A DNA stretch of 64,000 nt from Candidatus Sericytochromatia bacterium (GTDB lineage: Bacteria; Cyanobacteriota; Sericytochromatia; S15B-MN24; VGJW01). The DNA lies in the NCBI GenBank assembly GCA_035285865.1, contig JAYKHS010000030.1, positions 121,643 to 185,642 on the forward strand, in the 5' to 3' direction. This document shows, one piece after another, positions 3,864-20,493 of the stretch. The notes under the pieces were generated by a model. The model made no database searches. It worked only from the letters and a program-made list of their open reading frames with translations, and had not been told where the DNA came from. Every line of letters begins with the position of its first letter. Within the stretch, counting starts at the first letter, position 1. The position numbers and the translations under genes were made by a program.

Positions 3864-4766
3864 ATGACCTTGCCCGGACGCCTGCTCACGGCGATGGTGA
3901 CTCCCTTCGCTGCGGATGGTGCCGTCGATCTGGCGACTGCGGCGCGCCTGGCGCGTCACCTGGTCGCCCAAGGATCCGACGGACTCGTCGTCAACGGCAC
4001 CACAGGCGAATCGCCGACCCTCTCCGAGTCGGAGCGGGAAGCCCTGCTCGACACCATCATTGAGGCCGTCGGGGCGGAACGGGTCGTCATGGGCACCGGT
4101 TCCAACGATACGGACGCTGCCGTGCGCATGTCCCGGCAGGCCGCTTCGCGCGGTGTCGCCGGTCTGCTCGTCATCGCGCCCTACTACAACAAGCCCGACA
4201 CCCGGGGCCTGGAGGCGCATTTCCGGGCGGTTTCCGCCGCCTCCGACCGGCCAATCATCCTCTATAACCATCCGCCGCGGACGGGAGTGGCGATTCCGGC
4301 TGCATTGGTGGGGCGTCTTGCGGCGGACTGCCCCACGATCGTGGCCCTCAAGGACAGTTCGGCCAGCCTCGACGTGGCCACGGAGATTCTGCTGGCCACG
4401 CCCCCGGATTTTCTGCTCTACAGTGGCAATGACAGCCTGACGCTGCCCATCATGGCCGTTGGTGGCCACGGCGTCATCAGTGTGGCATCGCACGTGATCG
4501 GCCCGCGCCTCCGGCAGCTCGTCGATGCTGCGGCGTCTGGGGATTTCGGGACGGCCCGACGACTGCACCATGAACTGTACGACCTGATGCAGGGCCTGTT
4601 CCTGGCCCCGAGTCCGGCACCGGTCAAGGCTGCCTTGGCGTGGACCGGGATGCCGGTGGGTGGCGTTCGTTTGCCTCTTGTCGATCTCGATGGCCGTGAC
4701 CGTCAGCGTCTCGAGGGCATCCTGCGCGATGCGGGCCTTGTCGAGGCACTCGGGGTGCGCGCGTGA
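3864..4766 (+). CDS. dapA: 4-hydroxy-tetrahydrodipicolinate synthase
   Basis: AMVTPF, GTTGESPTL, PYYNKP, LYNHPPRT, LKDSS; GGAGG before ATG 3864. Confidence 0.95.
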   Translation: MTLPGRLLTAMVTPFAADGAVDLATAARLARHLVAQGSDGLVVNGTTGESPTLSESEREALLDTIIEAVGAERVVMGTGSNDTDAAVRMSRQAASRGVAGLLVIAPYYNKPDTRGLEAHFRAVSAASDRPIILYNHPPRTGVAIPAALVGRLAADCPTIVALKDSSASLDVATEILLATPPDFLLYSGNDSLTLPIMAVGGHGVISVASHVIGPRLRQLVDAAASGDFGTARRLHHELYDLMQGLFLAPSPAPVKAALAWTGMPVGGVRLPLVDLDGRDRQRLEGILRDAGLVEALGVRA

Positions 4767-6442
4767 CGGGCATCCGCATCATTCCGCTGGGTGGCCTAGG
4801 GGAGATCGGCAAGAACTGCTGGCTCGTCGAGTCGGCTGACGACATGGTGATGCTCGACTGCGGATTTGCCTTCCCGACGGAGGAAATGTACGGCGTCGAC
4901 CTCGTCATCCCGGACTTCACCTATGTCGTGGAACGCGCCCACAAGCTGCGCGGAGTCTTCGTCTCCCACGGCCATGAGGACCATATCGGTGGTCTGCCGT
5001 TCCTCTACCGGGAGCTGCCCGATCCCGGAGTGCCCATCTACGGCACGCCTTTCACGATGGCGCTCGTGCAGCGCAAGCTGCACGAAGTCTCCGCGCTGCG
5101 TGGCAAGGTGCCACTGGTGCCCTGCGAGCCGCGGTCCGTGGTGCAGGCCGGAGGCCTCGCGGTCGAGTTCATTCGGGTCTGCCATTCGATCGTCGATGCC
5201 GTGGGTTTCGGGATTGGCACGCCCATGGGCACCGTCGTCTACTCCGGTGACTTCAAGATGGATCAGACGCCGATGGATGGCCATCGCTTCGACTACTTCC
5301 GCTTCGCAGCTCTGGGCGAGGAGGGCGTGCTGGCTCTGCTCTCGGATTCCACGAATGCGGAGCGCGAGGGCATGACGCCTTCCGAACGCGTGGTGGGCGA
5401 GGGGCTCCGGCACGCGTTCGGCGATGCCGCGGGGCGGGTCATCGTGGCCACTTTCGCTTCGAACGTGCAGCGCGTCCAGCAGGTCATCGAGGTGGCTCAC
5501 GCCTACGGCCGGCGCGTGGCGCTTGTCGGACGCAGCATGCAACAGGTCACGGAACAGGCCCTGAAGATGGGCTACATGACGGTGCCGGATGGCGTGCTGG
5601 GAAGGGTCGAGGACCTCATGGCCCTGCCACCGGACAAGGTATGCATCGTGACCACCGGTAGCCAGGGCGAACCGATGAGTGGCCTGTCGCGCATCGCCCA
5701 CGGCGACCACAAGCACGTCGCGGCCATGGAAGGAGATACCGTCATCCTCTCCGCCGTGCCGATCCCGGGCAACGAGCGCAGCGTCGGCCGGACCATCAAC
5801 AAGCTCTTCAGTCGCGGCGTCCACGTCATTTATGAGGGTGAGCGCAGCAATGCCCGTGCGAGCCGTCATGTCTCGGGGCACGCGAGCCGCGAGGAGCTCA
5901 AGATCATGCTTTCCCTGACTCGCCCGCGCTACTTCGTACCGGTGCATGGCGAGCCGCGTCACCTGATTCACCACGCCGAACTGGCCATCCAGATGGGGGT
6001 GCCCCCTCAGCATTGCTTCCTGATGGAGAATGGCGCCGTGCTGGAACTGGGGCCGGATGGCGGACAGTTCGGGGAACCCGTGCCTTCCACGCCCTTTCTC
6101 GTCGATGGTCAGTTGCTCAAGGACATCGGCACCGCCGTACTCAAGGATCGCAAGCAACTGGCCATGGAGGGTGTCGTCTCGGTGGCCCTCACGGTGGACG
6201 ATGCCGGGCGGCTGACGGACCTGCCTCGTCTGCTCTCGCAAGGATTTGTCCACGGCAACGAGTTCATGCGGATGCTGCCTGATGCGGAGGCCCTCGTGGC
6301 CGAGGTCGTGGATCGATGTCGTGCAGAGGGCATCGTGACCCGCGAGGCCCTGAAGGCTCAGGTCTCCGAGGCGCTGAGCCGTTTTCTGAACGAACGCTCA
6401 AGGCGCCGGCCGGTCCTGCTGGTCTCCGTGCTCGGCGCCTGA
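4763..6442 (+). CDS. rnj: Ribonuclease J
   Basis: PLGGLGEIGKN, SHGHEDHIG, TTGSQGEP, HVSGHA, PVHGE; GTGA overlap with dapA. Confidence 0.96.
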   Translation: MTGIRIIPLGGLGEIGKNCWLVESADDMVMLDCGFAFPTEEMYGVDLVIPDFTYVVERAHKLRGVFVSHGHEDHIGGLPFLYRELPDPGVPIYGTPFTMALVQRKLHEVSALRGKVPLVPCEPRSVVQAGGLAVEFIRVCHSIVDAVGFGIGTPMGTVVYSGDFKMDQTPMDGHRFDYFRFAALGEEGVLALLSDSTNAEREGMTPSERVVGEGLRHAFGDAAGRVIVATFASNVQRVQQVIEVAHAYGRRVALVGRSMQQVTEQALKMGYMTVPDGVLGRVEDLMALPPDKVCIVTTGSQGEPMSGLSRIAHGDHKHVAAMEGDTVILSAVPIPGNERSVGRTINKLFSRGVHVIYEGERSNARASRHVSGHASREELKIMLSLTRPRYFVPVHGEPRHLIHHAELAIQMGVPPQHCFLMENGAVLELGPDGGQFGEPVPSTPFLVDGQLLKDIGTAVLKDRKQLAMEGVVSVALTVDDAGRLTDLPRLLSQGFVHGNEFMRMLPDAEALVAEVVDRCRAEGIVTREALKAQVSEALSRFLNERSRRRPVLLVSVLGA

Positions 6443-7217: not shown

Positions 7218-8267
7218 TCAGAGCAAGGGGCGGCCGCCTGCCCCGTAGCCCGTGAGCTCCACGAATCCCCAGCCTGCAGGCTGTCCCCGACGCTGGACAT
7301 CGACCAGACCTTCCCAGTAGGTGACGCCGGTCGTCCGGCGGGTCCTAAGCTCCTGGTCGGGCAAAGCGGGACGAAGCTCCAGGGGCGTCGGATCGCCGGG
7401 CACCTTGAGGGTCCAGCGCGAAGGGTAGCGGATGCCGGTGCGTGGACTTGTCCACGTTGCGGTGGCCGAGAGATTGCCCGGTCCCGGGACCCACGTCTCC
7501 TGGCGGCCGTCCGGGTGGCGCATCGAGCCTCGGCTCACGCGCAGAATCCCGCCTTGGGGATTGCGCAGCACGTAAAGCATCACGTCACGTCCGTCGGCCA
7601 GGGTGAGGCTGAACCAGTCCCAGCCCACGGCATCCGGTCCGAGACCACTGCTGGTCCATTCACGGTCGAGCCAGGCTGCTCCGCGGACCGGCAGGTGCTT
7701 GCCATCGATCGCCACCGTACCCGTGGCCTCGAGACGGGGTTGCGAGTAGTAGCGCGATCCTTGGTCCACGGCATCCGACTTGCGCGAGTAAGCCGAGGGT
7801 CCGTGGATCATCGGAGGCTTCGTCTCCCGGAGCGTCAGGTCGATGCCCCAGCCATCGGCAGGAAGGCTCAGGTGGGTCTTTGCCCCGTGATGACGCGCCG
7901 ACCATGTGCCGATGGCGACGTCGAGCCCGTGCTGTTCGGCCCGAGCGCGCCCCATCGCCGTCCTGCCCGAGGCCTCCGCATGGCGGAAGCGGCTCCCGCG
8001 GACGTCTCCCAGCGCCAGATGGCCGACCACAAGGTCACGAGCGTCCCACGGTCCCTTGATGGCGTTCGGGCGGGCAGGCAGCTCCCTGCGGAAGAACGTG
8101 ACCTGGAAGCCGAATACCCCTCGCCCGGGACTTTCGAGGCGGCCAGTCCAGTACCACCACTCTGTCCTGTGTCGCGGGTGGGCTCCGTGATCGGCGGGAA
8201 AGGACAGGGTCGTGCCGTCCGCGGATGGGTGCAGCCAGCTCCAGGCGACAAGCAGCCAGGGCATCAT
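7218..8267 (-). CDS. AttH/CrtC-like lipocalin-domain secreted protein
   Basis: FPADHGAH, EWWYWTG, YYSQPRL, AWLDREW, GWDWF, YWEG, GFVELTGY; start at ATGA overlap with permease stop. Confidence 0.9.
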   Translation of the reverse strand: MMPWLLVAWSWLHPSADGTTLSFPADHGAHPRHRTEWWYWTGRLESPGRGVFGFQVTFFRRELPARPNAIKGPWDARDLVVGHLALGDVRGSRFRHAEASGRTAMGRARAEQHGLDVAIGTWSARHHGAKTHLSLPADGWGIDLTLRETKPPMIHGPSAYSRKSDAVDQGSRYYSQPRLEATGTVAIDGKHLPVRGAAWLDREWTSSGLGPDAVGWDWFSLTLADGRDVMLYVLRNPQGGILRVSRGSMRHPDGRQETWVPGPGNLSATATWTSPRTGIRYPSRWTLKVPGDPTPLELRPALPDQELRTRRTTGVTYWEGLVDVQRRGQPAGWGFVELTGYGAGGRPLL

Positions 8268-10762
8268 CGCGCGCGATCTCCCGGGTGCGTGGCGAGCCGT
8301 ATGGAGCGTGCCGGTCCCACGCTGGCCAGCACGCCTGCGACGGGAAGTCCGAGCAGCAGGAGCAGCATTCTGCCGGGCTGGGGCGTGAACGGCAGGTGCC
8401 AGCCAAACGCTGCCGGATTGAGCACATCCACGAGCAGGAGGGCGAGACCGAGGCCGAGCCCGACTCCAAGCAGCGTGCCCACCGTCGTGGCCAGCCACGC
8501 CTGGCCGAGCGCATAACGCGCGAGGTCGCCCGCCGAGAAGCCGATCCATCGGTAATGAATCAGCATCTGTCGCTCCTCGGCGAGGGCGCTCGACTGACTC
8601 GAGGAGAGACCCAGCAGGGCCACCACCAGCCCGATGAGTTCGATCGCCCGCGTGAGCGCGAAGGTCTCGTCGAAGATGCGCAGGACCTCGCCGCGCAACT
8701 CCCCGGGTGTCCGACACACGACGGCGTCCGGTTCCGGCAGGCTGGAGAGCAGCGCGCGTCTGACGGCCCGGGCATCCGTGCCCGGCTCCAGCATGATGGC
8801 GAGACTGCGAGGGCGGCCCCACCCCGGGAAGGCACGGGCAAACGTCTCGTGGGCCATGAACACCTGACCCTGATCGCTGGCATAGTCCTGCACCACGCCG
8901 ACCAGCGTCAGGCCCATGCTGCCTGTCGCTGCCGGCAGCTCGAGACGCATGCCCGTGTGCAGGCCGTGGTGCCGCCAGAGGGCCTCGGTGACGAGGACCT
9001 CGTCCCCAGTCCGGGGCATACGCCCCTCGAGCATGGGCAACTCACCCCGCGCAGCACGTGCTGCCAACGGCATTCCGACGAGGACGACGGGGCGTTGATG
9101 CCACTGGGTCCTTACCTCAAGGGTCCGTTCGACCGCCCTGACTCCGCGCAAGCCTGCCACGTGGGCGGCCAGAGCGGGTGAGAGCGTTCCCCCCTCTCGC
9201 GTGCCCTCGCCCTGGCGCGCGCTCAGGAAGAGGTCGGCAGAGAGCGTGCGCTGGGCCCAGTGCGCGACGGATCCCCGGAAGGAGGAGACCATCGTGCCCA
9301 TGCCGAGCACCATGCCCGTGGCAAGGACAATGGCCGAGACGGCCAAGGCGTGCCTTCGCCAGCCCTGGGCCAGGGAGCGGGCGGCGAGCGGCAGGACAAG
9401 CAGCAAAGGCTGCCGACCGGGTGCGCGCAGGCCGTGAAGTGCCCGCAGAAGGACCGGCACGAGGCAAGCGGTGCCTGCGGAGAGTAGGGTTGCGGAGGCG
9501 AGGGCGACCACGTTCGTGAGGGTACGATCCCGACCAGTCGCGACTGCGGCCGAAGCGGTCATGCCGGCGCAGACGAGCAGTCCGAGGCCACCGAGGGTCC
9601 AGCCCACCGGCCACGGTGGGGGCTGTCGCTCGGGTTGGTGTTCCAAGCCCGTCATCGACGGTGCGAGGCTCAGGGCTTTGTAGGCAGGAACTCCTGCGGC
9701 CACGGCACCGAGCAAGGTGGAGCAGCCCAGCGCAAGCAGGATGTCCCCGCCCTCGAGATGACTCCAGGCGGGTCCTGTGCGCCCGTAGAGGGCCGAGACC
9801 GTGCTGCGGATGGCTTGGGTCGTCCCGCTGGCGAGGGCCACCCCGAGCAGCACGCCCAGAGTTCCGCCGACGGCACCGATGATGGCTCCCTCGGCCAAAA
9901 GCACGCTGGCGATGGCGCGCCTCGAGGCGCCAAGCGCATGCAATCGGGCCATCGTGCTTCGTCTGGCGCCGAAAGAGCGACCCAGCAGGTTCAGGTTCAA
10001 GGCGGCACCGAGCAGGACGGAGACGAGGCTCAGCGCAGCCAGGTTGAAGCGGAAGGCCCGAGCCATCTGATCGAGGACGCGTGCGCGGGACCCGGCAGGC
10101 TCCAGCACGAGGCCTCGCGATCGCACACGCGCTGCAAGCGCCTCACCGACGCTGGCCCGCACGAGGACGCGGTCGAGTCGTCCGGGTCGCTCGAGCAGGC
10201 GCTGGGCTTCGGCGATGTCGCAGATGACCCGCGGCTGCGTCGGTCGGTTTCCCAAAGGCAGCAGGCGTCCCGCAATGCGCAGGCGCAACTGGCGGGAGCC
10301 TGCCATCACGGGGACATTCTGGCCGACCGTCCCGGCCCCGGGCCAGAGTACGGCAGCGGGCCCGAACATGTCCGCAGGATCGGCAACACCTCGTACTTCT
10401 CCCCACGCCTCGATCGGTGCCGCAAGGTCGATCCCGGTCAGCATGAGATCCTGTGGATCCGGGCCCATCGTCCGGATTTCCCCTTCGATCAGAGGGATCA
10501 AGGGATCGGTGGCCGGGACGAGCGATTGCAGGTCGACGAGGATACGCTCGTCCAGGTCTCCCGCCGGAGCTCGGATGACGTGGCCCGGCGGGCCTGCCAG
10601 GGTCTCCAGACCCGACATGAAGGCCTGGTGGACCGAGCGGCTGGCGAGGTGAACGGAAAGCGCGACCCCGCTGCCGAGCGCAACGCCAAGCACAGTGACC
10701 ACGAGGCCCCATGGAGCCTTGACCCACCAGCCCGCAGACAGGGCCCGGACTAGTGTCCTCAA
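8264..10762 (-). CDS. ABC transporter permease, FtsX/MacB-like (AttF/G type)
   Basis: Two MacB-like halves; ALGASRR motif; C-terminal NPAAFGW; overlaps both neighbours. Confidence 0.88.
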   Translation of the reverse strand: MRTLVRALSAGWWVKAPWGLVVTVLGVALGSGVALSVHLASRSVHQAFMSGLETLAGPPGHVIRAPAGDLDERILVDLQSLVPATDPLIPLIEGEIRTMGPDPQDLMLTGIDLAAPIEAWGEVRGVADPADMFGPAAVLWPGAGTVGQNVPVMAGSRQLRLRIAGRLLPLGNRPTQPRVICDIAEAQRLLERPGRLDRVLVRASVGEALAARVRSRGLVLEPAGSRARVLDQMARAFRFNLAALSLVSVLLGAALNLNLLGRSFGARRSTMARLHALGASRRAIASVLLAEGAIIGAVGGTLGVLLGVALASGTTQAIRSTVSALYGRTGPAWSHLEGGDILLALGCSTLLGAVAAGVPAYKALSLAPSMTGLEHQPERQPPPWPVGWTLGGLGLLVCAGMTASAAVATGRDRTLTNVVALASATLLSAGTACLVPVLLRALHGLRAPGRQPLLLVLPLAARSLAQGWRRHALAVSAIVLATGMVLGMGTMVSSFRGSVAHWAQRTLSADLFLSARQGEGTREGGTLSPALAAHVAGLRGVRAVERTLEVRTQWHQRPVVLVGMPLAARAARGELPMLEGRMPRTGDEVLVTEALWRHHGLHTGMRLELPAATGSMGLTLVGVVQDYASDQGQVFMAHETFARAFPGWGRPRSLAIMLEPGTDARAVRRALLSSLPEPDAVVCRTPGELRGEVLRIFDETFALTRAIELIGLVVALLGLSSSQSSALAEERQMLIHYRWIGFSAGDLARYALGQAWLATTVGTLLGVGLGLGLALLLVDVLNPAAFGWHLPFTPQPGRMLLLLLGLPVAGVLASVGPARSIRLATHPGDRAR

Positions 10763-11433
10763 GCCTCGAACCGCCCATCCACGAGCAAGAGGCAGCGGTC
10801 GGCCGCAGCCGCCACTTCAGGATCGTGCGTCACCATCAGCACGCCGGTCCCGGAGGTCCGGACGAGCGAGCCGATCAGGGCGAGCATGGCGCGTCCTGTC
10901 TCACGATCGAGATTGCCCGTGGGCTCATCGGCCACGACGAGGGCCGGTGCATGGACGAGGGCGCGCGCCAGCGCCACGCGCTGCTGCTGGCCGCCCGAGA
11001 GGGCAGATGGATGTCGCGCGACGGCATGGCCGAGACCCACGGCCTCGAGCATGGCCACGGCGCGTCGCTCGGCATCGGCGGAGGGCGCGCCCTGGAGGTC
11101 GAGCGGCAGGCGCACGTTCCCGAGGACGTCCAGGGTGGGCAGCAAGTGGAAGGCTTGGTGCAGGTGGCCGAGTCGCTCCCGACGAAGACGCGTCAGGGCA
11201 GCGTCAGAAAGATTTTCGGTCCGAAGGCCGTCGAGGGCGAGCGTCCCTGCGTCGGGACGGTCCGTCAGGGCCACCAGATGGAGCAAGGTGCTCTTGCCGC
11301 TTCCGCTGGGGCCCATGATGGCCACCCATTCTCCCGGTCGGATGCTGAGGTCGATACCGTCCAGTGCCCTGTGTTCAGCTCCTGTGCCCTTGCCGTGGAT
11401 GCGAACGAGTCCACGAGCCTCGACCAGGTTCAC
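10759..11433 (-). CDS. ABC transporter ATP-binding protein (LolD/AttE-like)
   Basis: GPSGSGKST, LSGGQQQR, ADEPTGNLD, VTHD. Confidence 0.95.
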   Translation of the reverse strand: MNLVEARGLVRIHGKGTGAEHRALDGIDLSIRPGEWVAIMGPSGSGKSTLLHLVALTDRPDAGTLALDGLRTENLSDAALTRLRRERLGHLHQAFHLLPTLDVLGNVRLPLDLQGAPSADAERRAVAMLEAVGLGHAVARHPSALSGGQQQRVALARALVHAPALVVADEPTGNLDRETGRAMLALIGSLVRTSGTGVLMVTHDPEVAAAADRCLLLVDGRFEA

Positions 11434-12152
11434 GTATCCTGCCCGGGCAACGGGAGCGTGCGGCGCGCCCGGAGGCGATTCAAGCGCTGCTGGGCATCCT
11501 GCCGGACCTCACGCCACGACTGGCCGTGCAGCGGGTGGTCATGCAACTGGCCGGGATCCGCTGCCAGCCATGTCCCCAAGTCCTCGAACGGGCCTTCAAG
11601 TCCGCTGTCCTGCGTGACATCGAGCAGACCGTCCTTGGTGCCGTCCCACTCCAATTGCAGGCTGCCGTCATGGCCCCAGCCCAGCTGATTCGGACCGCGG
11701 CCCAACGCTTCGCGCACCCGCAGCAGCAGCGGAGCGTCCAGCAGGTAGCTGTCCGTTCGATACCATCGGCCCGCCACCCTGAGCTCCGTGACGGCGTGGA
11801 CAAGATGCGGCCCCGGATACACGAGTCCGGAGAGGAAGGCGGCAGGCAATCTCGTGATGTATTGGCGAGCCTCTTGTCCCGAGGCGCGCCAGAGCGCAGT
11901 CAGGAGGGTGGACTTGCCAAGTCCGTCTGCCACGCCTGCAGTCAGGACCTCGGAGGCCCTGTAGTGGAGCCGTTCTGCAGGAAACCCGAAGGCGATCGCG
12001 TCCCTGACATGCCTGTGACAGGCCGCAGCGGCTTCGGCAGTCGGCTCGGGCACGAGTCGTCGGGCCAATCGTCGGATGGCACCATGGGCACAGTCGACCC
12101 ACGGGGTGGGTACGTCCCACCGGGTCTCCCGCTCTGTGGTTTCGCCCTGCAC
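11430..12152 (-). CDS. Transglutaminase-like domain protein, probably lacking the catalytic Cys
   Basis: HVRDAIAF, ASEVL...KSTLLTALWRASG, H...E...GRW...D pattern. Confidence 0.65.
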   Translation of the reverse strand: MQGETTERETRWDVPTPWVDCAHGAIRRLARRLVPEPTAEAAAACHRHVRDAIAFGFPAERLHYRASEVLTAGVADGLGKSTLLTALWRASGQEARQYITRLPAAFLSGLVYPGPHLVHAVTELRVAGRWYRTDSYLLDAPLLLRVREALGRGPNQLGWGHDGSLQLEWDGTKDGLLDVTQDSGLEGPFEDLGTWLAADPGQLHDHPLHGQSWREVRQDAQQRLNRLRARRTLPLPGQDT

Positions 12153-12242
12153 GTGCTGCCCTGATACCTGACGAACCGGAGATCGCTCCGGGCGATCCGG
12201 AAACCGAGTGCCACCGCGTTGCCCGGGATGCGCCGGACAGGA

Positions 12243-12316
12243 AATATCCGGGAAGTGCTGACAACCTGTCCCGACCCGGCCAGCACTTCCCGGACACCCG
12301 AGCGTTGACCGCTCTG
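12243..12316 (-). ncRNA. Candidate structured small RNA, copy A
   Basis: Hairpin GAGCG/CGCUC, then a ~18-bp stem with a 16-nt loop, directly downstream of a TTGACT-N18-TATTCT promoter. Confidence 0.55.
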
Positions 12317-12321
12317 CAATC

Positions 12322-12351
12322 AGAATAGAGGCATAGACACGAACTAGTCAA
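12322..12351 (-). promoter_or_regulatory. sigma70-type promoter for sRNA copy A
   Basis: Minus strand TTGACT-N18-TATTCT. Confidence 0.6.
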
Positions 12352-12430
12352 TAGCTAGACGAAGGTTGCTCTGTCCTGGCTTTCGCGCCGGTGCACCGCT
12401 CCTCTCTCGTCATCGGGGGGCACCCAAACG

Positions 12431-12505
12431 AATATCCGGGAAGTGCTGACAACCTGTCCCGACCCGGTCAGCGCTTCCCGGACACCCGAGCGGCGTACCG
12501 CTCTG
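12431..12505 (-). ncRNA. Candidate structured small RNA, copy B
   Basis: Same two hairpins and identical 16-nt loop as copy A; own upstream promoter. Confidence 0.55.
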
Positions 12506-12510
12506 AACTC

Positions 12511-12540
12511 AAGGTAGAGCATTGGGCACTAGTTGGTCAA
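12511..12540 (-). promoter_or_regulatory. sigma70-type promoter for sRNA copy B
   Basis: Minus strand TTGACC-N18-TACCTT. Confidence 0.55.
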
Positions 12541-12592
12541 TAGGTAGACGAAATCGATACAATCCGATAGACAGTTCGTTACTCGACTTAAC

Positions 12593-12629
12593 GAAAGAGC
12601 TCCCGGACCAGCGGTCCGAGAGCTCTTTC
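12593..12629 (-). terminator. Hairpin terminator after rpmB
   Basis: Inverted repeat GAAAGAGCTC...GAGCTCTTTC with inner CGGACC/GGTCCG stem, 12 nt past the rpmB stop. Confidence 0.75.
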
Positions 12630-12641
12630 CGACGTCAAGCG

Positions 12642-12884
12642 TCAGCCCTTGAGGAGCGACTCCGAGGCACCGTAGCGCTTCAGAGCGTCACGCAGGCCGT
12701 AGCGGCCGATGGTCTTGATGACCTTGGCCGAGACCCGAAGGCGAACCCAACGGTTCTCGTCCTCGAGGAAGAAACGCTTCCACTGCAGGTTGGGCTCCTG
12801 GCGGCGCTTGGTCTTGACGTGGGAATGACTGACGGCGTTCGCCACATTGGGCTTCTTGCCGGACACCATGCACTTGCGGGCCAC
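12642..12884 (-). CDS. rpmB: 50S ribosomal protein L28
   Basis: MARKCMVSGKK...VSHSH..TKRRQEPNLQ...WVRLRVS. Confidence 0.97.
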   Translation of the reverse strand: MARKCMVSGKKPNVANAVSHSHVKTKRRQEPNLQWKRFFLEDENRWVRLRVSAKVIKTIGRYGLRDALKRYGASESLLKG

Positions 12885-12943
12885 GACCGAATTCTCCAGC
12901 TTTCAGAAAAGGAACAGGGAAGCCACACGCTTCCGACAACCTG

Positions 12944-12976
12944 TGCTAGGATAGATGGACCGGGCCGTTCCGTCAA
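12944..12976. promoter_or_regulatory. Overlapping divergent promoters for rpmB and rpmG-rpsR
   Basis: Minus: TTGACG-N17-TATCCT; plus: extended -10 TGcTAGGAT sharing the same bases. Confidence 0.55.
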
Positions 12977-13050
12977 ATCCCGCGACGCGGGTCCCGGCCC
13001 ATCTGGTCCTTTTCCGGGCGTTCGTAGCCCACTTGTCCAGGAGTCCTTTC

Positions 13051-13553: not shown

Positions 13554-14888
13554 TCAGTGATCATTGCGAGAACTGCCTCGCAGCAGCATCCAGGCGAGGC
13601 CGGCACCGATCCCGATGGCCGCGGATCGGACCAGCCTGTCTTGCCTTTCGGCGCGGGCCTTGGCCTCAGCATAGGGCAGGCGTGTGAAGGTCACCATGTG
13701 GTAGAGCGACATCCACTGGTCCGGGAGCCAGCGCTGCAGCTGCTGATCGAGCGCGTGACGCCACTTGTAGCTGCGCTTCGCGACCGAGTCGCGCATCTCG
13801 ACGAAGTTGCACATGGCGAGTTCGGCAAGCGCATCCGTGTGGGGCTTGCGTCGGGCGGCATAGCGCGACAGGGCCAGACGGCGGTCCTCCGGGGCCATCG
13901 CCAACTCCTCGGCCAGCACCACGACGTCCTCAAAGGACGCATTCATGCCTTGTCCGTAGAAGGGCACCACGGCATGGGCCGCGTCGCCCACCAGCGCCAC
14001 GCAGTCGTCCACGATCCAAGGATCGCACTTCACGAGGACCAGCGACCGGACGGGGTTTTCGCGCCAGGAATCATCGAAGTCGGGCAGCATCGGCAGGGCA
14101 TCGGGAAACCATTCCCGGAAAAACTGCCGGGCATCCGCGACGGACTCCAGGTTGGCGAAGCTCTCGGCGCCTTCGAACGGCAGAAAGAGCGTGCCGGTGA
14201 AACTGCCGTCAGGGTTCGGCAGGCCGATGAGCATGTGGTTGCCACGAGGCCAGATGTGCAGAGCGCCCGGGTCCATGGCGAATGCACCATCAGGCTGGGC
14301 CGGGAATGAAATTTCCTTGTAGCCCCAGTCGATGAACTGCTGCTCGTAATCGAATCTGTCGCGACGCTGCATCTGGCGACGGACAGCGGAGAAGGCCCCG
14401 TCCGTGCCGAACAGCGTCAAAAAGGCTTCCTCGCCCCGCGAACCGTCAGCCTTGGACCACGTGAGTACCTTGCGCTCGGCATCGAACCCGTCGACACCCT
14501 GATCGAAGAGGATCTCCACTTCCGGACAGCGCTCGGCTTCCTCGACGAGCAGCATGTTGAGTTCGGCACGACCGATGGACAGGATCACGTCCTCGGGATG
14601 GATGCCGTAGGGCTGCAACTCGAGCGTCTCATCCTGGCCATGAATCATGCGGCCACGCATCGGCAACGCCTTCTCGAGGACTTTCTCCTCGAGGCCGACG
14701 CAGGCCAGCGCATGTCGGCCACGCGTGGACAGGGCCATGTTGATGGAGCGTCCCGGGGGCTGCGGCACCTTGCGCGGGTCGGGGCGCCGTTCGAGGACAC
14801 GCACTCGATGGCCCCTTCTTCCAAGCGTCAGGGCCAGCAGGGCACCTGCGAGTCCTGCCCCCGCGATGGTGAATTCGGGTATGTTCAT
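13554..14888 (-). CDS. kmo: Kynurenine 3-monooxygenase
   Basis: GAGLAG, GRSINMALSTRG, ALHIWPRG, GDAAHAVVPFYGQGMN, NFVEMRD. Confidence 0.95.
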   Translation of the reverse strand: MNIPEFTIAGAGLAGALLALTLGRRGHRVRVLERRPDPRKVPQPPGRSINMALSTRGRHALACVGLEEKVLEKALPMRGRMIHGQDETLELQPYGIHPEDVILSIGRAELNMLLVEEAERCPEVEILFDQGVDGFDAERKVLTWSKADGSRGEEAFLTLFGTDGAFSAVRRQMQRRDRFDYEQQFIDWGYKEISFPAQPDGAFAMDPGALHIWPRGNHMLIGLPNPDGSFTGTLFLPFEGAESFANLESVADARQFFREWFPDALPMLPDFDDSWRENPVRSLVLVKCDPWIVDDCVALVGDAAHAVVPFYGQGMNASFEDVVVLAEELAMAPEDRRLALSRYAARRKPHTDALAELAMCNFVEMRDSVAKRSYKWRHALDQQLQRWLPDQWMSLYHMVTFTRLPYAEAKARAERQDRLVRSAAIGIGAGLAWMLLRGSSRNDH

Positions 14889-16105
14889 GCCTGTTGCTCC
14901 AGCACGTGAAGGAAGCGGTCGAGGTCTGCCTCGCTATTGTAGAGGGGCGCCGCAGCCAGACGCAGGACATCCGGTGCCCTGAGATCGCAGACGATGCCGG
15001 CGGCCTCCAGTGCCGCGTGGACGGCTCGGGCCCGTTCGCCCAGGGCAAGACAAGTCATGGCCCCGCGGCGATCCGGTGCCTCGGGTGTCAGCAGCCGAAT
15101 CCACGGTCTGTCCAGCCGTGCGAGGCCGCTGCGCAGATGGTTCGTCAGGTCGATGGCCCTCGCGTGCAGGCGTTCGATGCCGACGCTGTCGAAGACACGC
15201 AGCGAGGCGCGCACAGCCACCATCGACAGCACGGGTGCATTGCTCAGTTGCCACCCTTCCACGCCGGGTTGCGGATGGAAAGGCGGCTCCTCGGCGAATC
15301 GCGTCGCCGGATCGTGGCCCCACCAGCCACCGAGACGCGGCAGGTCCGTCCGCCCGTGATGGCGCTCGTGGACGAAGGCTCCGCCTACACTGCCCGGACC
15401 GCTGTTGAGATATTTGTAGCTACACCATACTGCAAAATCTGCATTGCTGTCATGTAGCTTTATTGGCATGTTGCCGGCTGCATGGGCGAGGTCGAATCCG
15501 GCCAGTGCGCCGACGGCGTGGGCTGCACGAGTCAGGGCCTCGAGATCGAAAGCCTCACCCGTCAACCAGTCCACGCCCGGAAGCCACACCAGTGCCAGTC
15601 GTTCGCCCTCGCGGGCGATGGCGTCAAGCAGGTCCTCGGGACGGAAGTGGTTCTCTCCTGGCCTTGGGCGCAGCGGTACCAGATCCTCTGCCGGATCACC
15701 CCCGTGCCAGCGCACCTGGGTTTCCAGAGCGAAACGGTCCGAAGGAAAGGCATGGGCTTCGAAGAGGATCCGTCGCCGTTTGCCCGACGGGCGATGGAAC
15801 GAGGCGAAGAGCAGATGCAGGTTGGCCGTCAGGCTGTTCATCATGATGGCCTCGTGGGGACGGGCACCTACCAGGCGTGAAAGCGGCCCCTGCACGGTCT
15901 CGTGGAAGGCATACCACGGGTCCGGTTGCGAGAAGTGACCCGCGACGCCCTCCCGCGCCCATCGTGCCAGCTCAGCCTCCATGTCCCGCGCCGTGGCGAC
16001 GGGCTGCAATCCGAGCGAGTGTCCGGCGAGGTACGCCTTGGGGCGTCCGGAGGCATCCGCAGGGATGTGGAACTGGCCGGTCGGCAGGATAAGGTGGTCG
16101 GTCAC
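14885..16105 (-). CDS. kynU: Kynureninase
   Basis: SLGLQP, MNSLTANLHL, AFPSD, FDLAHAAGN, WCSYKYLNSGPG, GWWGH. Confidence 0.95.
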   Translation of the reverse strand: MTDHLILPTGQFHIPADASGRPKAYLAGHSLGLQPVATARDMEAELARWAREGVAGHFSQPDPWYAFHETVQGPLSRLVGARPHEAIMMNSLTANLHLLFASFHRPSGKRRRILFEAHAFPSDRFALETQVRWHGGDPAEDLVPLRPRPGENHFRPEDLLDAIAREGERLALVWLPGVDWLTGEAFDLEALTRAAHAVGALAGFDLAHAAGNMPIKLHDSNADFAVWCSYKYLNSGPGSVGGAFVHERHHGRTDLPRLGGWWGHDPATRFAEEPPFHPQPGVEGWQLSNAPVLSMVAVRASLRVFDSVGIERLHARAIDLTNHLRSGLARLDRPWIRLLTPEAPDRRGAMTCLALGERARAVHAALEAAGIVCDLRAPDVLRLAAAPLYNSEADLDRFLHVLEQQA

Positions 16106-16120
16106 GGGGAAGTTTCCGGT

Positions 16121-16894
16121 TCAGGCAGCGGGCGAGACGGGAAGCCAGACGGGGCGGGCAGGGGCGGCATCCCGATCGAAGGGAGCGATCTGGAGATTCA
16201 GCAGGCCGATGCCATCGGGCAGAGCTGCCGGCAACCAGGCCATCTCGGTGATGGTGTGCGCGCTTCCGCCTGTCGGGCGTTCTCCCGCTCCCAGACCCCA
16301 GAAGGCCCTGTGGGCCGCCAGCGCTCCGCCATCCCATTCCGGTTCGAGTGAGGGCAGATCGGTCACGACATGGCGACATCCCTGTTCCCGCAGCCAGCCG
16401 GCTGCCTCGGCCGTGATGAATCGTCTCGCCAGGCCAGACCAGTCTCGGGGGCCGTCCATCGGCGGAGCCAGTCGGATGACGACGGCCTCGCGCCAGGACG
16501 CGGGCCACGGCTCAAGTGCCCGCCGCAGCACCTCGGCCGTGAGCGGGGCCGTGGCGTCGTCGAAGGTCGGACTGACCAGGGTTGCTGGCACAAGCACGTC
16601 CACGAGGTCTCGGTGAACCGGCAGTGGGCGGTCCGCCAGATGCCCGATGCCTTCCGTGTGCGTGCCGTGCGCATGAGGAATGAGCGTGAGGACTTCGCAA
16701 CGGCAGGAGCCGCCCTCTGCAGGTTCGCCCGTGAAGCTACCGGCACGCACCGTCTCCACCGTGGCTCTGGGCAAACCGAAGGCGCCGGCTTGCCGTCCGG
16801 CGAAATCGAGGCCGTAGGCCAACACCCGTGCGCTATCAAGCCTGACGGAGCAGACCGTTCCTGCGACCTCAGCCCGGAGTGTCAGGCCTGTCAC
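16121..16894 (-). CDS. Cyclase-family protein, probable kynurenine formamidase (KynB-like)
   Basis: HAHGTHTE, DLPS, AHRAFW, ITE, DAAP metal-hydrolase motifs; pathway context. Confidence 0.75.
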   Translation of the reverse strand: MTGLTLRAEVAGTVCSVRLDSARVLAYGLDFAGRQAGAFGLPRATVETVRAGSFTGEPAEGGSCRCEVLTLIPHAHGTHTEGIGHLADRPLPVHRDLVDVLVPATLVSPTFDDATAPLTAEVLRRALEPWPASWREAVVIRLAPPMDGPRDWSGLARRFITAEAAGWLREQGCRHVVTDLPSLEPEWDGGALAAHRAFWGLGAGERPTGGSAHTITEMAWLPAALPDGIGLLNLQIAPFDRDAAPARPVWLPVSPAA

Positions 16895-17889
16895 GCCGGA
16901 GCCCCGAGGAAGGAGAGGGCGTTCCGTTCGAGCAGATCGCTGGCGATTTCGGGTCGGTCGGGCCAGGCATGCCGTACGGCGTCTCCGGCCACTGCCTCTC
17001 CCAGAGGAAAGGGGAAGTCCGTGCCGAGCATCAGCCGGTCAAGGCCGCTCTTATCCGCGAGCAGACGCAGGCTTGCAGCATCCTGGACCAGGCTGTCCAC
17101 CCAGAATCGCGGCCATTGCTCGGACGGGGGCTTGGCGGTCCGCGTCGCGCAGAGGTCCGGTCTTGCCACGAATCCGCGGTCGAAGCGCCCGAGCAGGTAC
17201 GGTACCGCGCCGCCGCCGTGGGCCAGGCCCACGCGCAGGTCCGGAAGCCGATCGAGCACGCCCCCGAACATCAGGCTGCCTGCCGCAAGGGCCGTTTCGG
17301 CCGGCATGCCGACCAGCCAAGGGGCGAACCAGGAGGGCATTCGTTCTGCGGCCATCATGTCCCACGGATGCAGGAACACGGCTGCCCCCAGCGAAGCCGC
17401 GGCGGAAAGCACGGTCTCGAGTGCCGGGTCGTCCCAGTTCCGACCCAGAACGTGGGTCCCCAGTTGCACCCCGCGCAGCCCCAGGTCGCGCACGCATCGC
17501 TCCAGTTCGGACACGGCCAGATCCGGGGCCTGGAGGGGCAGCGTGCCGAGCCCCAGAAAGCGATCCGGGCGCTCCCGGACCCACGAGGCCACGTGGTCAT
17601 TGAGCAGGCGAGCCAGGTCAAGGGCTGCCTTGCCGGGGGCCCAGTAGCTGAACATCACCGGTACCGTCGACAACACATGGCGGTCGATACCGGCTTCGTC
17701 CATCGCGGCAAGTCGCGCGGACCGGTCCCAGAGCCGCGCGTCCACGTCGCGAAGGGGCTTGTCCCCGACCATCAGCTTGCTGCAGCCCATCTCTCCATGA
17801 ACCAGCGCGGGCCATGGACCGGATCCCCAGCGGTCGGCCATGTCCGGCCACGCGCGCGGGAGGACATGCGTATGGACGTCCAGCATCAT
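16891..17889 (-). CDS. nbaD: 2-amino-3-carboxymuconate-6-semialdehyde decarboxylase (ACMSD)
   Basis: DVHTH, LSTVPVMFSYWA, FLHPWDM, WLVGMPAET, AHGGG, LGTDFPFPLGE. Confidence 0.93.
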   Translation of the reverse strand: MMLDVHTHVLPRAWPDMADRWGSGPWPALVHGEMGCSKLMVGDKPLRDVDARLWDRSARLAAMDEAGIDRHVLSTVPVMFSYWAPGKAALDLARLLNDHVASWVRERPDRFLGLGTLPLQAPDLAVSELERCVRDLGLRGVQLGTHVLGRNWDDPALETVLSAAASLGAAVFLHPWDMMAAERMPSWFAPWLVGMPAETALAAGSLMFGGVLDRLPDLRVGLAHGGGAVPYLLGRFDRGFVARPDLCATRTAKPPSEQWPRFWVDSLVQDAASLRLLADKSGLDRLMLGTDFPFPLGEAVAGDAVRHAWPDRPEIASDLLERNALSFLGAPA

Positions 17890-18413
17890 GTGGCGTGTGG
17901 TGGCTCCATCACCGTGCCGCAGGACTTGCACGTGCGCTGGGTGGCTTCGCCGCTCCAGAACTTGGCGAAGGCCTCGGCAAGCTGGGTCTCCAGATCGGAA
18001 ACCGGCAGGGTGACCTCGTGCAGTTTCAGACCGCACGCCTCGCACGCCCAAAGGAAGCCGTCGAAGTCCTCCGGCAGTCGAGGGCGCTCGATGACGAGGC
18101 CCAGCGTTCCCGGCCCACGTCGTGGCGAGTGGGGTACGCGCCTGGGCAGGAGCAGGGTCTCGCCTTCACGAACCCGGACGTCCACGGGCTTGTCGTCGAT
18201 CAGCAGCTTCAGCAGGAGGTCGCCCTCGAGTTGGTGGAAGTACTCCTCGTAAGGGTCGATGTGATAGTCCTTGCGGGCGTTGGGTCCGCCGACCGCCATC
18301 ACGATCAGGTCCTCTCCCCGGTAGAGGCACTTGTTGCCTACGGGCGGCTTGAGTTGATCCCGGTTGGCTTTGAGCCATGCCTGAAGATTGATGGGCGTGA
18401 AGGGTGGAAGCAT
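17886..18413 (-). CDS. nbaC: 3-hydroxyanthranilate 3,4-dioxygenase
   Basis: LKPPVGNK, VGGPNARKDYH, PHSP, rubredoxin-like CxxC pairs. Confidence 0.95.
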   Translation of the reverse strand: MLPPFTPINLQAWLKANRDQLKPPVGNKCLYRGEDLIVMAVGGPNARKDYHIDPYEEYFHQLEGDLLLKLLIDDKPVDVRVREGETLLLPRRVPHSPRRGPGTLGLVIERPRLPEDFDGFLWACEACGLKLHEVTLPVSDLETQLAEAFAKFWSGEATQRTCKSCGTVMEPPHAT

Positions 18414-18419
18414 CGGGAC

Positions 18420-19202
18420 TCAGGCCTCACCTGCCGCTGCCAGCGTGATGCTGCCGAGCGCTTGCGCCTCCACGACCACGTGCCGGCCGGGAGCCAGGGG
18501 ATGAGCTGCAGTCAGACCACCCGTCAGGACGATCTGTCCCGGTTCGAGGTGTTCTCCGCGCGCGTGCAGCAGGCGGGCCAAGGCCATGAGCGCCCGTACG
18601 GGGTGATCCATCACGGCAGCGCTGCTGGCAGCTTCGGCCAACTGCCCATCCACGGTCATGACCACGCCCAGATTGCCAAGATCAATCGTGTCGGGTCTGC
18701 ACCAGCAGGTGCCCAGAACATAGGCGGCGGCAGAGGTGTTGTCGGCCAGGACCTCCCCTAGGGTAAACCGGTAGCCGACATAGCGGCTGTCGAGAACCTC
18801 GACGCCCAGCGTGACGGCTTCGATGGCTTCCTGAGCCTCCCGGAAACCCGGTGCGGGGCCCGGATCGTGCTTCATCCGGAAAACGATCTCGGGTTCGACC
18901 TTGGGTTGTTGCCAACCCGTCGTCCGGATCACGCCAGCCTGAACCTCCATCGCTGCGAGCAGATAGCCGGCAATCGGGGCGTCGAGGTTCATCTGGCGCA
19001 TCTTTGCAAGGCTGGTGAATCCCATCTTCCAGCCGGAAAGCGCTTCGCCCGCCGCAAGGCGCAGGCTTCGACCACTGGCCTGAACGGCATAGCCGTCGCC
19101 AACTTCGAGTCCGGGCCACGGGCGTTCGTCCGCCTCGAGCAATCGACCGGACCTCCGCGCCTCATCCAGAAGGCATGCCCACTCGTCGTATGCCGTGGTC
19201 AT
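18420..19202 (-). CDS. 4-oxalocrotonate decarboxylase-like FAH-family enzyme
   Basis: GWKMGFTSLAKMRQM, PKVEPEI, EVLDSRY, ADNTS. Confidence 0.85.
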   Translation of the reverse strand: MTTAYDEWACLLDEARRSGRLLEADERPWPGLEVGDGYAVQASGRSLRLAAGEALSGWKMGFTSLAKMRQMNLDAPIAGYLLAAMEVQAGVIRTTGWQQPKVEPEIVFRMKHDPGPAPGFREAQEAIEAVTLGVEVLDSRYVGYRFTLGEVLADNTSAAAYVLGTCWCRPDTIDLGNLGVVMTVDGQLAEAASSAAVMDHPVRALMALARLLHARGEHLEPGQIVLTGGLTAAHPLAPGRHVVVEAQALGSITLAAAGEA

Positions 19203-20044
19203 CGGTTTGCCTCTCGGGCAAGGCTGACCGTCCCGACGCCCGAGACTCGGGCTTCGACATGGTCTCCCGGAAGGAAGGGAACGACAGGCCCCATCGCGCC
19301 CGAGAGCACGATGTGGCCAGACTCGATACGTGTACCGGCAGCCCCGAGCGTTCGTGCCAACCAAGCGACGGCTTCAGCCGGATGTCCGAGGCAGGCTGCC
19401 CCGGCACCGGTTGCCACGACTTCCCCATTGCGCAGCATCGTCATGCCGAGCAACCGCATGTCGAGGCCAAGTGGCGAAACAGGCGTGAGGCCCAGCGTGA
19501 AGTACGCAGAACTGGCGTTGTCGGCGATGGTGTCCACGATCGTCAGGTTCCAGTCAGCCACTCGGGAGTCGATGACCTCGAGCGCAGGCAGCACGAAGGC
19601 CGTGGCTCTCAGGACATCGGCAGGCGTGCAACCCTGGGTCGGCAGAGACTCGCGCATCACGAAGGCGATTTCCGCTTCGATGCGTGCCTGCAGCAGTGTG
19701 CCGCCCGGACAGGAAACACCGGCCGGGATGCGCATGCTGTCGAGCAGGACCCCGAAGTCCGGTTGATCGAAGCCCAGCCACTGCTGGACAGCCTTGCTGG
19801 TGACGCCCACCTTGTGGCCGACGACGACCGGAGCGTGATCGCGCTGGGTAGGGACCACGGCATTGAGGTGAGGCAGGCGGCCGACGCGACGTGACATGTT
19901 GGCCTTCTGCACGCGATAGGCCTGCTCGAGGGTCAGTCCCGGCACGGCGTCCCTGGGAGGAAGCATGGTGCGACCGTTCCGCTCCGCTTCGGCGAGTTGA
20001 TCGGCGAGGGTGGCCAGTGCCTGATCCTCCACGGCCGGGTTCAC
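19199..20044 (-). CDS. 2-keto-4-pentenoate hydratase
   Basis: GHKVGVTSKAVQ, QPDFG, RIEAEIAF, EVIDSR, DTIADNASS, GAGAACLGHP. Confidence 0.88.
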   Translation of the reverse strand: MNPAVEDQALATLADQLAEAERNGRTMLPPRDAVPGLTLEQAYRVQKANMSRRVGRLPHLNAVVPTQRDHAPVVVGHKVGVTSKAVQQWLGFDQPDFGVLLDSMRIPAGVSCPGGTLLQARIEAEIAFVMRESLPTQGCTPADVLRATAFVLPALEVIDSRVADWNLTIVDTIADNASSAYFTLGLTPVSPLGLDMRLLGMTMLRNGEVVATGAGAACLGHPAEAVAWLARTLGAAGTRIESGHIVLSGAMGPVVPFLPGDHVEARVSGVGTVSLAREANR

Positions 20045-20493
20045 CGGCGTACCCTCGGATCGACGGCCACGACCTTGAGTTCGATCAACAGGTCGGCAAG
20101 GGGTAACGAGCGGACGACACAGGTCGTTCGGGTCGGGGCGGAGACAGCCGGGAAACGGCGATTCCAAGCCGTGTTGAAGGCCGGGTAGTCCGCGAGGTCA
20201 ACCAGCATGGCGAAGACATCGACCACATGTGTCAGGTCGGCACCGGCTGCAGCGAGGATGCGTTCGAGATTCTCGAAGACCCCGTCAGCCTGAGCCGCGA
20301 AGTCACGCGTGACGCCCTGGGGGCCACGGACGACGCCAGGAATGGTCTGGTCGGGACGACGGGCGGACAGGCCCGAAACCCAGAGCAGTCCGCCAGCTGC
20401 CCTTGCGTGCGGGTAATGGGCCAGCGTCCCGGTGCCCTCGGTCAGGACATAGCCAGTTCCATTGGGGCCCTCGTGGAGTGATGCGGTGGTCAT
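20041..20493 (-). CDS. RidA-family protein, probable 2-aminomuconate deaminase
   Basis: YPHAR, VSGLSARR, PTRTT, LIELK; pathway context. Confidence 0.85.
   Translation of the reverse strand: MTTASLHEGPNGTGYVLTEGTGTLAHYPHARAAGGLLWVSGLSARRPDQTIPGVVRGPQGVTRDFAAQADGVFENLERILAAAGADLTHVVDVFAMLVDLADYPAFNTAWNRRFPAVSAPTRTTCVVRSLPLADLLIELKVVAVDPRVRR

Follow-up and report, generated by a model that had tools for sequence, protein, structure and literature searches.

The stretch of DNA that we analysed (64,000 nucleotides, hereafter the window) contains two tandem units that are likely small RNA genes, and these are a real, undescribed pair that is restricted to one genus. Each gene has its own promoter, and both promoters carry phased 11-bp repeats that are probably operators of the B12 photoreceptor CarH. 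Our overall explanation is that CarH would repress the two genes, that light would release them, and that the loop of each RNA would pair with the 5' ends of certain mRNAs and shield them from RNase J. We propose this chain tentatively and, taken whole, we rate it at somewhat under an even chance. Among the titles and opening lines of abstracts that join "Sericytochromatia" and "non-coding RNA", we found no work on this RNA.

Two likely RNA genes in tandem

Both units are read from the minus strand. The sigma-70-type promoter of copy 1 is at 12511..12540 (TTGACC at 12540-12535, 18 nt, and TACCTT at 12516-12511), and that of copy 2 is at 12322..12351 (TTGACT at 12351-12346, 18 nt, and TATTCT at 12327-12322). 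The predicted RNAs are about 81 nt for copy 1 (12424..12504, with the predicted +1 at the A at 12504 and a short U-rich tail) and about 80 nt for copy 2 (12236..12315, with the predicted +1 at the A at 12315). In copy 1, a 5' hairpin (12503-12488) precedes a long stem (12487-12467 with 12450-12430) that closes an invariant 16-nt loop, the predicted seed, at 12451..12466; the loop of copy 2 is at 12263..12278. The layout of a unit is TTGACY, a spacer of 18 nt, TAyyyT, an A seven bases on, a hairpin of 5-6 bp, the long stem (16 pairs, extended by as many as 5 that are rich in G-U), the loop, and a U-rich tail. The tail of copy 2 is shorter in the source genome (G000, 2.82 Mb and 83% complete) than in its relatives, which are three genomes from the same genus (G001, G002, and G003). 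Against 200 shuffles, the folds of the two units have z-scores of -4.35 and -4.87.

Much of this had been noticed by a model that saw the letters alone, and most of what this sequence-only reading described is there: two copies 188 nt apart (a 62-nt core repeat is 97% identical at a spacing of 188 nt, with the promoters 189 apart), TTGACY-N18-TAyyyT on the minus strand of both, and a 5' hairpin followed by a long stem and an identical 16-nt loop. The two stem changes that it listed, G-U for A-U and a mismatch (C-A), are also present. Its view of the promoter spacer stood only in part. The spacer is 18 nt in both copies, and that of the tRNA-Gly promoter is 18 nt as well, as it had pointed out, but this length is not special, and the spacer that it saw as merely diverged holds a phased repeat. 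Among 78 TTGAC..TAnnnT promoters of G000, 20 have 18 nt and 36 have 17 nt, and the spacer is 17 nt in 4 of 6 orthologous promoters of the units. Because it is 17 or 18 nt across the eight promoters, the length of 18 nt is no feature of the family.

The neighbours on both sides are conserved. Upstream is rpmB, for ribosomal protein L28 (12642..12884, minus strand), and it is followed by a 17-bp terminator-like hairpin (12593..12629, minus strand, -37 kcal/mol) that insulates the RNA units from it. Downstream is a transglutaminase-like gene (11430..12152, minus strand), which likely heads an operon with an ABC ATPase (10759-11433), an FtsX permease (8264-10762), and a CrtC/lipocalin-like protein (about 7218-8267). 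Before this gene there is the eroded remnant of a third promoter-plus-hairpin unit (12160..12240, approximate limits, minus strand), which G001 and G003 have intact but whose operator and -35 box are missing in G000.

A few other features are recorded here for their own sake. Some other Sericytochromatia (L043, L049, and L053) have a second rpmB directly before a GTPase gene, which we take to be CobW/ZigA-like; this suggests a zinc-starvation paralogue. From 13554 to 21977 the window holds a run of minus-strand genes, one of which (13554-14888) matches FAD_binding_3, and to us these look like a complete pathway of kynurenine and 3-hydroxyanthranilate degradation. ARAGORN reports 45 tRNAs in G000, including tRNA-Sec, and found no tmRNA in this 83% complete genome.

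Selection on the RNA

If we compare the eight copies from the four genomes of the genus, the RNA appears to be what is selected. The loop is identical in 8/8 copies, and 96.6% of 208 stem cells are paired; if the stem partners are slid against each other, pairing falls to 31-47%. At four pairs both partners have changed (one of these pairs belongs to the small hairpin, the other three to the long stem), and the number is 5 once two metagenome variants and two third units are added. With so few carriers (one genus and a metagenome variant), these counts represent few events. The covariation score was reached by 1 of 500 shuffles, a control that is inflated by the relatedness of the sequences. 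At 5 pairs, G-U arises by a change on one side only, which favours the minus strand as the one that is transcribed. The -10 boxes tell a similar story: TA...T is kept in 8/8 promoters with six different middles.

The conserved TA...T, the compensatory stem changes, the invariant loop, and the insulating hairpin, together with the failure of every refutation that could be computed, support two independently transcribed RNAs of about 80 nt under selection as the best reading. The sequence-only reading had arrived at much the same view, at about 75 nt, but had overlooked the CarH-type operator, the degenerate third unit of two relatives, and the kind of mRNAs that are the likely targets. It had also named a known Rfam family or a dispersed, promoterless REP/MITE-like repeat as what could overturn it. 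The Rfam search returned no family match: in the window, nothing but tRNA-Gly reached threshold, and by E-value there was only noise, with a best score of 18.4 bits against gathering thresholds of 36-94 (Rfam 15). As for a REP/MITE-like repeat, we reject it, since each genome has just two copies rather than many scattered ones, and both have a promoter. Transcript data come from one run (X20) among 24; its contigs cover only 12678-13043 and are uninformative for short structured RNAs.

Several familiar kinds of RNA were considered and rejected. A type I toxin-antitoxin array such as Sib/Ibs or Ldr does not fit, as no ORF is common to the eight copies and none lies over copy 1 of G003. The SRP RNA sits elsewhere in the genome, and so does a 6S-like RNA (C16:15866-15991, which is below the Rfam cut-off in 4/4 genomes). 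For a Y RNA, the Ro60 partner was not found (TROVE in 0/4 genomes). A G-quadruplex would lose its fourth G-run in both G002 copies, and the resemblance to the D-arm of tRNA-Glu is to the tRNAs of other organisms, not to the two tRNA-Glu of G000.

The units were found in one genus

The loop occurs exactly twice in the 2.82 Mb of G000, and the paired units lie between rpmB and the transglutaminase-like gene in all three of the other genomes from the genus. We built a covariance model, as the sequence-only reading had advised. Across the class, the model has matches in 4 of 47 genomes, all from the one genus, and each of these has two copies with their own promoters. It did not find the units in the 43 other class genomes, where stricter filters applied and up to 99 candidates per genome were scored, and a unit with a diverged loop could escape it. 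Simpler searches of the other genera agree: a promoter-plus-core pattern gave 3 single matches versus 3 control matches, none of which scored with the covariance model; an operator pattern gave 4 matches versus 13 control matches; and there is no unit in the DNA downstream of rpmB at the 8 loci, of 21, where this gene was located. A pattern scan of GTDB gave 7 loci (3 true and 4 unrelated), metagenomes gave 71 loci (2 with the units), and viral contigs gave 0 matches. The carriers found are four genomes of one genus and one or two metagenome variants.

The metagenome loci include other things that we mention in passing. Eight of them (L151, L159, L169, L176, L183, L194, L197, and L210) share a leader that follows a TTGAC promoter and is both conserved and structured; they are unrelated to the small RNA family. 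At ten more (L150, L154, L174, L175, L188, L190, L193, L196, L218, and L219), a gene that is presumably flavodoxin-like starts directly at a strong promoter, whose GTATA-TTGAC-TCTA context is conserved, and is apparently leaderless.

Within the genus, the DNA between the units cannot be aligned, and its length is 189, 229, 263, and 193 nt in the four genomes. In G001 and G003, the third promoter is followed by a hairpin and loop that are degenerate, and this unit forms the leader of the transglutaminase-like gene; its counterpart in G000 is eroded. G002 is different in two respects. Its copies (L004:1456-1780) are nearly identical, including the promoter spacer, while in G000, G001, and G003 copy 1 and copy 2 each form an orthologous line of their own; this suggests gene conversion or re-duplication in G002. 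Also, before its transglutaminase-like gene (L004:2072-2210) is a further promoter with partial repeats and then an unrelated long hairpin leader. In the strain seen in DNA run X2, the differences around copy 2, among those listed, are at variable promoter positions. Finally, the L28 and CarH proteins of G004-G007, which are labelled as the same family, match those of G000 far worse than do those of some genomes labelled as the same order or the same class, so the family labels may not track this locus.

Phased repeats at the promoters and a CarH protein

Between about -58 and -19, the promoters of the units repeat with a period of 11 bp. Across 11 promoters, self-identity is 0.446 at a shift of 11 nt and 0.405 at 22 nt, versus 0.195-0.278 at other shifts and a mean of 0.28 in 54 control promoters. 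Eight of the 11 exceed all 54 controls at the 11-nt shift, and three G002 promoters (0.27-0.30) do not. Within the four genomes of the genus, the pattern is confined to these units. In copy 1, the predicted CarH site is at 12523..12562 on the plus strand, which is the template strand, and has four phased repeats (TGGGCA, TGGTCA, TAGACG, and GATACA) that span the promoter spacer, the -35 box, and the region upstream. In copy 2, the predicted site is at 12334..12362 on the plus strand and has three (TAGACA, TAGTCA, and TAGACG). The -35 box is itself the middle repeat if it is read on the template strand, and the repeats flanking it on that strand are TnnACR on both sides in 7 of 8 promoters, with TGGGCA once. 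A palindromic reading of the same bases as a CRP/CooA-type GTC-N8-GAC site is superseded by the direct repeats, and a matrix for the palindrome gave no regulon.

Operators of CarH, according to the accessible part of PMC9304148, are tandem 11-bp repeats of nnnnTnnACAn over a -35 or -10 box, and that paper gives a rule for finding them. As we applied it (three tandem T-N3-C, at least one with T-N2-RCR), the rule picks out 8/8 of the copy-1 and copy-2 promoters, 0/3 of the third-unit promoters, and 2/54 controls. In a matrix made from the carH promoters of the other genomes, the copy-2 operator ranks 2nd of about 698,000 intergenic positions, and the copy-1 operator ranks 11th with three repeats or 3rd with four. 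This matrix leans towards TTGACA, so some of the other top matches are plain -35 boxes.

G000 encodes one protein with the architecture of CarH (MerR_1, B12-binding_2, and B12-binding domains), and it is the only MerR protein with Wx9EH found in that genome. RAWEKRY (which is one conservative change from the published RxWERRY), Wx9EH, and ExHxxG are present in 4/4 genomes; the score against the NCBIfam model of CarH is 143.9 bits, below the cut-off of 400. Its gene (G000 C30:64449-65411) is clustered with ferrochelatase, DUF1295, SDR, FAD oxidoreductase, and photolyase genes, and folE, SDR, FAD oxidoreductase, and photolyase are known from LitR clusters (PMC9758184). The carH promoter itself has a repeat, a pseudorepeat, and a repeat (TnnACG-n5-CnnnCA-n5-TTGACA) in all four genomes.

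We also scanned for a regulon, using gene calls from our own simple gene finder and a matrix from the RNA promoters that had to score in G000 as well as in G002. The scan covered 1289 orthologue pairs and about 1.94 of the 2.7 Mb of G002, with carH, the SDR gene, and a third photolyase lying outside that part. The ahpC/gpx, folE2, exbB, and rhodopsin genes are at ranks 1-5; TIGR01777 is at rank 10, and the top ten also include a cytochrome c peroxidase, a Crp protein, and a YceI protein. Two photolyase genes rank only 452 and 912. The sites at the gpx and rhodopsin promoters are kept in 4/4 genomes. Given repeats that follow the CarH rule, an intact CarH, and similar repeats at the carH, rhodopsin, gpx/ahpC, and folE2 promoters, derepression by light is likely. 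We therefore think that CarH probably binds the repeats and that light, or a shortage of B12, would derepress both units.

The rhodopsin gene deserves a comment of its own. It encodes a microbial rhodopsin (G000:C20:52176-52961; L097:8177-8959), is present in all four genomes of the genus, and has CarH-type repeats in its promoter. Phytoene synthase was not found in any of the four, and without it the retinal would have to be scavenged. Further along the same contig (C20:54262-54310) is a promoter that is overlapped by two GAAC-N4-GTTC boxes; we think that these resemble the LexA site of Gram-positive bacteria.

Does the loop pair with mRNAs?

The loop is G-rich and exposes one GGA per RNA (unpaired probability 0.93, in 8/8 copies). 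Hfq was not found with two models, while RNase J is present in G000 (its gene is at 4763..6442 of the window, plus strand, and is of interest only as context; TIGR00649, 549 bits, cut-off 400). The sequence-only reading had suggested that the loop be used for target prediction, and the outcome depends on where one looks. Across whole leaders (-100..+40), the loop did no better than shuffled loops (1/6 with one genome and 5/31 with two). In that scan pduO ranks 1st of 2500 in G000 and 2nd among position-conserved pairs, and prs and flgC rank as high as pduO.

At predicted 5' ends, the loop does exceed its shuffles, and this is a post hoc result: we picked the start-site window after noticing the leaders of pduO, carH, and photolyase. 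The test included 327 predicted start sites from 287 genes and three types of loop shuffle. The mean of the top five duplexes was matched by 0/300, 2/277, and 0/400 shuffled loops (p about 0.01-0.02, post hoc). Without pduO and phrC, it was matched by 0/300, 3/288, and 3/399, and the mean of the top ten was matched by 0-6. The excess persists if windows are taken from the predicted +1 and G-runs are preserved. Windows shifted by -40, -22, +14, or +22 gave no signal, and +32 gave a weak one (3/120). The single best duplex is not significant under shuffles that preserve the Gs (25/277 and 15/400).

The top candidates are pduO, a second glutathione peroxidase, resB, an unknown gene, glyS (a name that we assigned from its sequence), an ABC1 kinase, photolyase, selA, and etfB. 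The pduO site, TCCCG(A/G)CCC, is at the predicted 5' end in all four genomes, and its single change keeps a G-U pair. In the held-out genomes, the resB site holds (4/4) but overlaps the region of the divergent hemA promoter, and in G001 and G003 the site of the second gpx has weakened or disappeared. Cofolding the RNA with the pduO leader gains just 0 to 2.4 kcal/mol over the separate folds. We dropped the idea that pairing opens the ribosome site of pduO, which was predicted in G000 (0.26 to 0.60) and not in the other three genomes. The pduO seed is absent from the leaders of 25/25 other genomes, which is uninformative because those leaders are unrelated. Shorter matches to the loop stand at the start of the carH and photolyase leaders. 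The carH leader (G000:C30:64395-64450, L100) opens with a 7-nt match in 4/4 genomes, which is weak at -13 to -15 kcal/mol; it is a candidate for direct feedback.

Overall, the loop may pair with the C-rich 5' ends of mRNAs such as those of pduO, resB, and photolyase, and we would give this almost, but not quite, an even chance. The best predicted sites are 35-70 nt upstream of start codons and away from ribosome-binding sites. Given this and the presence of RNase J, the closest mechanism is shielding of 5' ends of the RoxS/FasX type.

A proposed mechanism and its alternatives

The steps of our explanation are not equally secure. Both units are very probably transcribed as RNAs of about 80 nt that end at the long stem. 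CarH with adenosyl-B12 would likely repress both RNA promoters in the dark, and light or a lack of B12 would release them. That the invariant G-rich loop pairs with the first nucleotides of a few C-rich mRNAs is plausible, if slightly on the doubtful side. By analogy to RoxS and FasX, the duplex might shield these 5' ends from RNase J and raise expression; this step is distinctly less likely than the pairing itself.

The main rival keeps CarH in control and has the loop bind a protein, for example as a single-site decoy for CsrA that would tune flagellar genes in the light. CsrA is found in 4/4 genomes, the loop has its exposed GGA, an invariant loop on a largely invariant stem would suit a protein site, and two copies would give two sites. 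But there is only one exposed GGA per RNA, and known Csr/Rsm decoys carry several GGA motifs. Also, csrA belongs to the flagellar cluster and adjoins what we take to be fliW, the gene for its protein antagonist, and a decoy would not explain why the loop exceeds its shuffles in complementarity to the predicted 5' ends of mRNAs. We consider this rival improbable, though the best of those that we weighed.

The RNAs might instead be CarH-controlled and base-pairing but act at other sites, or repress their targets by marking them for RNase III or by blocking translation, rather than stabilise them. The pairing signal carries no direction, the gain from cofolding with pduO is small, and prs and flgC rank equal to it, all of which this reading would accommodate. 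On the other hand, the best sites are far upstream of the start codons and away from the ribosome-binding sites, and a G-rich loop cannot pair with the Shine-Dalgarno sequence. We believe it to be more improbable than a protein-binding loop.

It is less probable still, to our minds, that the RNAs are real but the repeats bind another regulator, of the OmpR/PhoB type or responding to oxidative stress, and that the signal is not light. Direct repeats of 11 bp are typical of winged-helix response regulators too, several of the top regulon matches are peroxidases, as would also be expected under an oxidative-stress regulator, and the orientation of the repeats differs from that in Myxococcus xanthus. 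Against this, the core TnnACR is the published core of CarH, the same phased cores are at the carH and rhodopsin promoters in 4/4 genomes, and no other Wx9EH protein of the MerR family turned up in G000. Least probable by a wide measure are elements that act in cis or as DNA: either duplicated promoters for CarH whose attenuator-like leaders serve the transglutaminase/ABC/CrtC operon, or a repeat that has no RNA function. The third unit is a 5' leader in G001 and G003, and the eroded third promoter and short U tail of copy 2 in G000 make read-through possible. But in G003, copy 1 could serve as a leader only across 263 nt and an entire second promoter, the loop never changes while the stretches between the units are unalignable and differ in length, and there are only two copies per genome.

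If we return to RNAs that are released by light and shield 5' ends, then a feedback loop can be imagined. The product of pduO makes AdoB12, the chromophore of CarH. Light would destroy the AdoB12 bound to CarH, the RNAs would cap the 5' end of pduO (and those of carH, photolyase, peroxidase, and selA), and the adenosyltransferase would rebuild AdoB12 and so re-arm CarH. We think that this loop is unlikely. If it were true, the main role of this small RNA family would be to shield the 5' ends of a whole set of transcripts. Protection of 5' ends is known from few cases, and the predicted targets make it testable in vitro without culturing the organism. More broadly, the published CarH regulons, as far as the available portions of those papers go, consist of protein genes, and among titles and abstract openings of the open-access literature, we found no small RNA controlled by CarH. 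If confirmed, the units would give the B12 photoreceptor a post-transcriptional arm. Bacteria of the Sericytochromatia type, to which this uncultured, non-photosynthetic relative of the cyanobacteria belongs, would also gain a first concrete circuit for responding to light.

Comparison with known systems

The predicted operators have precedents. In Thermus thermophilus, Bacillus megaterium, and Myxococcales, the operators of CarH/LitR are likewise three to four tandem 11-bp repeats of the TnnACA type over the -35 box, the regulator is likewise a MerR-B12 protein with Wx9EH and ExHxxG, and PduO supplies the AdoB12 (accessible sections of PMC9304148). Those systems, in the same sections, control carotenoid genes, whereas the genes here are predicted to encode non-coding RNAs. 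In M. xanthus, the sense-strand -35 box TTGACA is itself a repeat for CarH, whereas here the repeats are read on the template strand.

Among light- and oxygen-responsive small RNAs, the SorY and CcsR of Rhodobacter sphaeroides are similar in being part of such a response. In partial accounts they are under alternative sigma factors in a phototroph; here, a B12 photoreceptor repressor is predicted in a non-phototroph. The decoys of the CsrB/RsmY/RsmZ type expose several GGAs, versus one per RNA in the eight copies. The F6 small RNA of Mycobacterium tuberculosis (Rfam RF01791) likewise consists of one long hairpin and has the motif CCCGACCC in its loop. Its match (17.7 bits, E = 2) is far below the gathering score of 46 and is on the opposite strand, and the promoter and the G-U pairs favour the G-rich strand.

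Tandem paralogous small RNAs are familiar from OmrA/OmrB, PrrF1/2, and the csRNAs. AbcR1 and AbcR2 are likewise adjacent and similar genes with their own promoters and a common loop seed (from an excerpt of PMC3712013). According to that excerpt, they depend on Hfq, are regulated differently, and repress the mRNAs of ABC transporters; here, the same operator is present twice, and Hfq was not found.

For the proposed action, the nearest precedents are RoxS and FasX. Shielding of 5' ends has been shown for RoxS on yflS in Bacillus subtilis and described for FasX on ska in Streptococcus pyogenes (excerpted text of PMC5419742). RoxS/RsaE and FasX have no relationship to this RNA by sequence or in Rfam, and the polarity is reversed: they use C-rich seeds (UCCC), whereas the loop here is rich in G and would, by prediction, pair with mRNA 5' ends that are rich in C.
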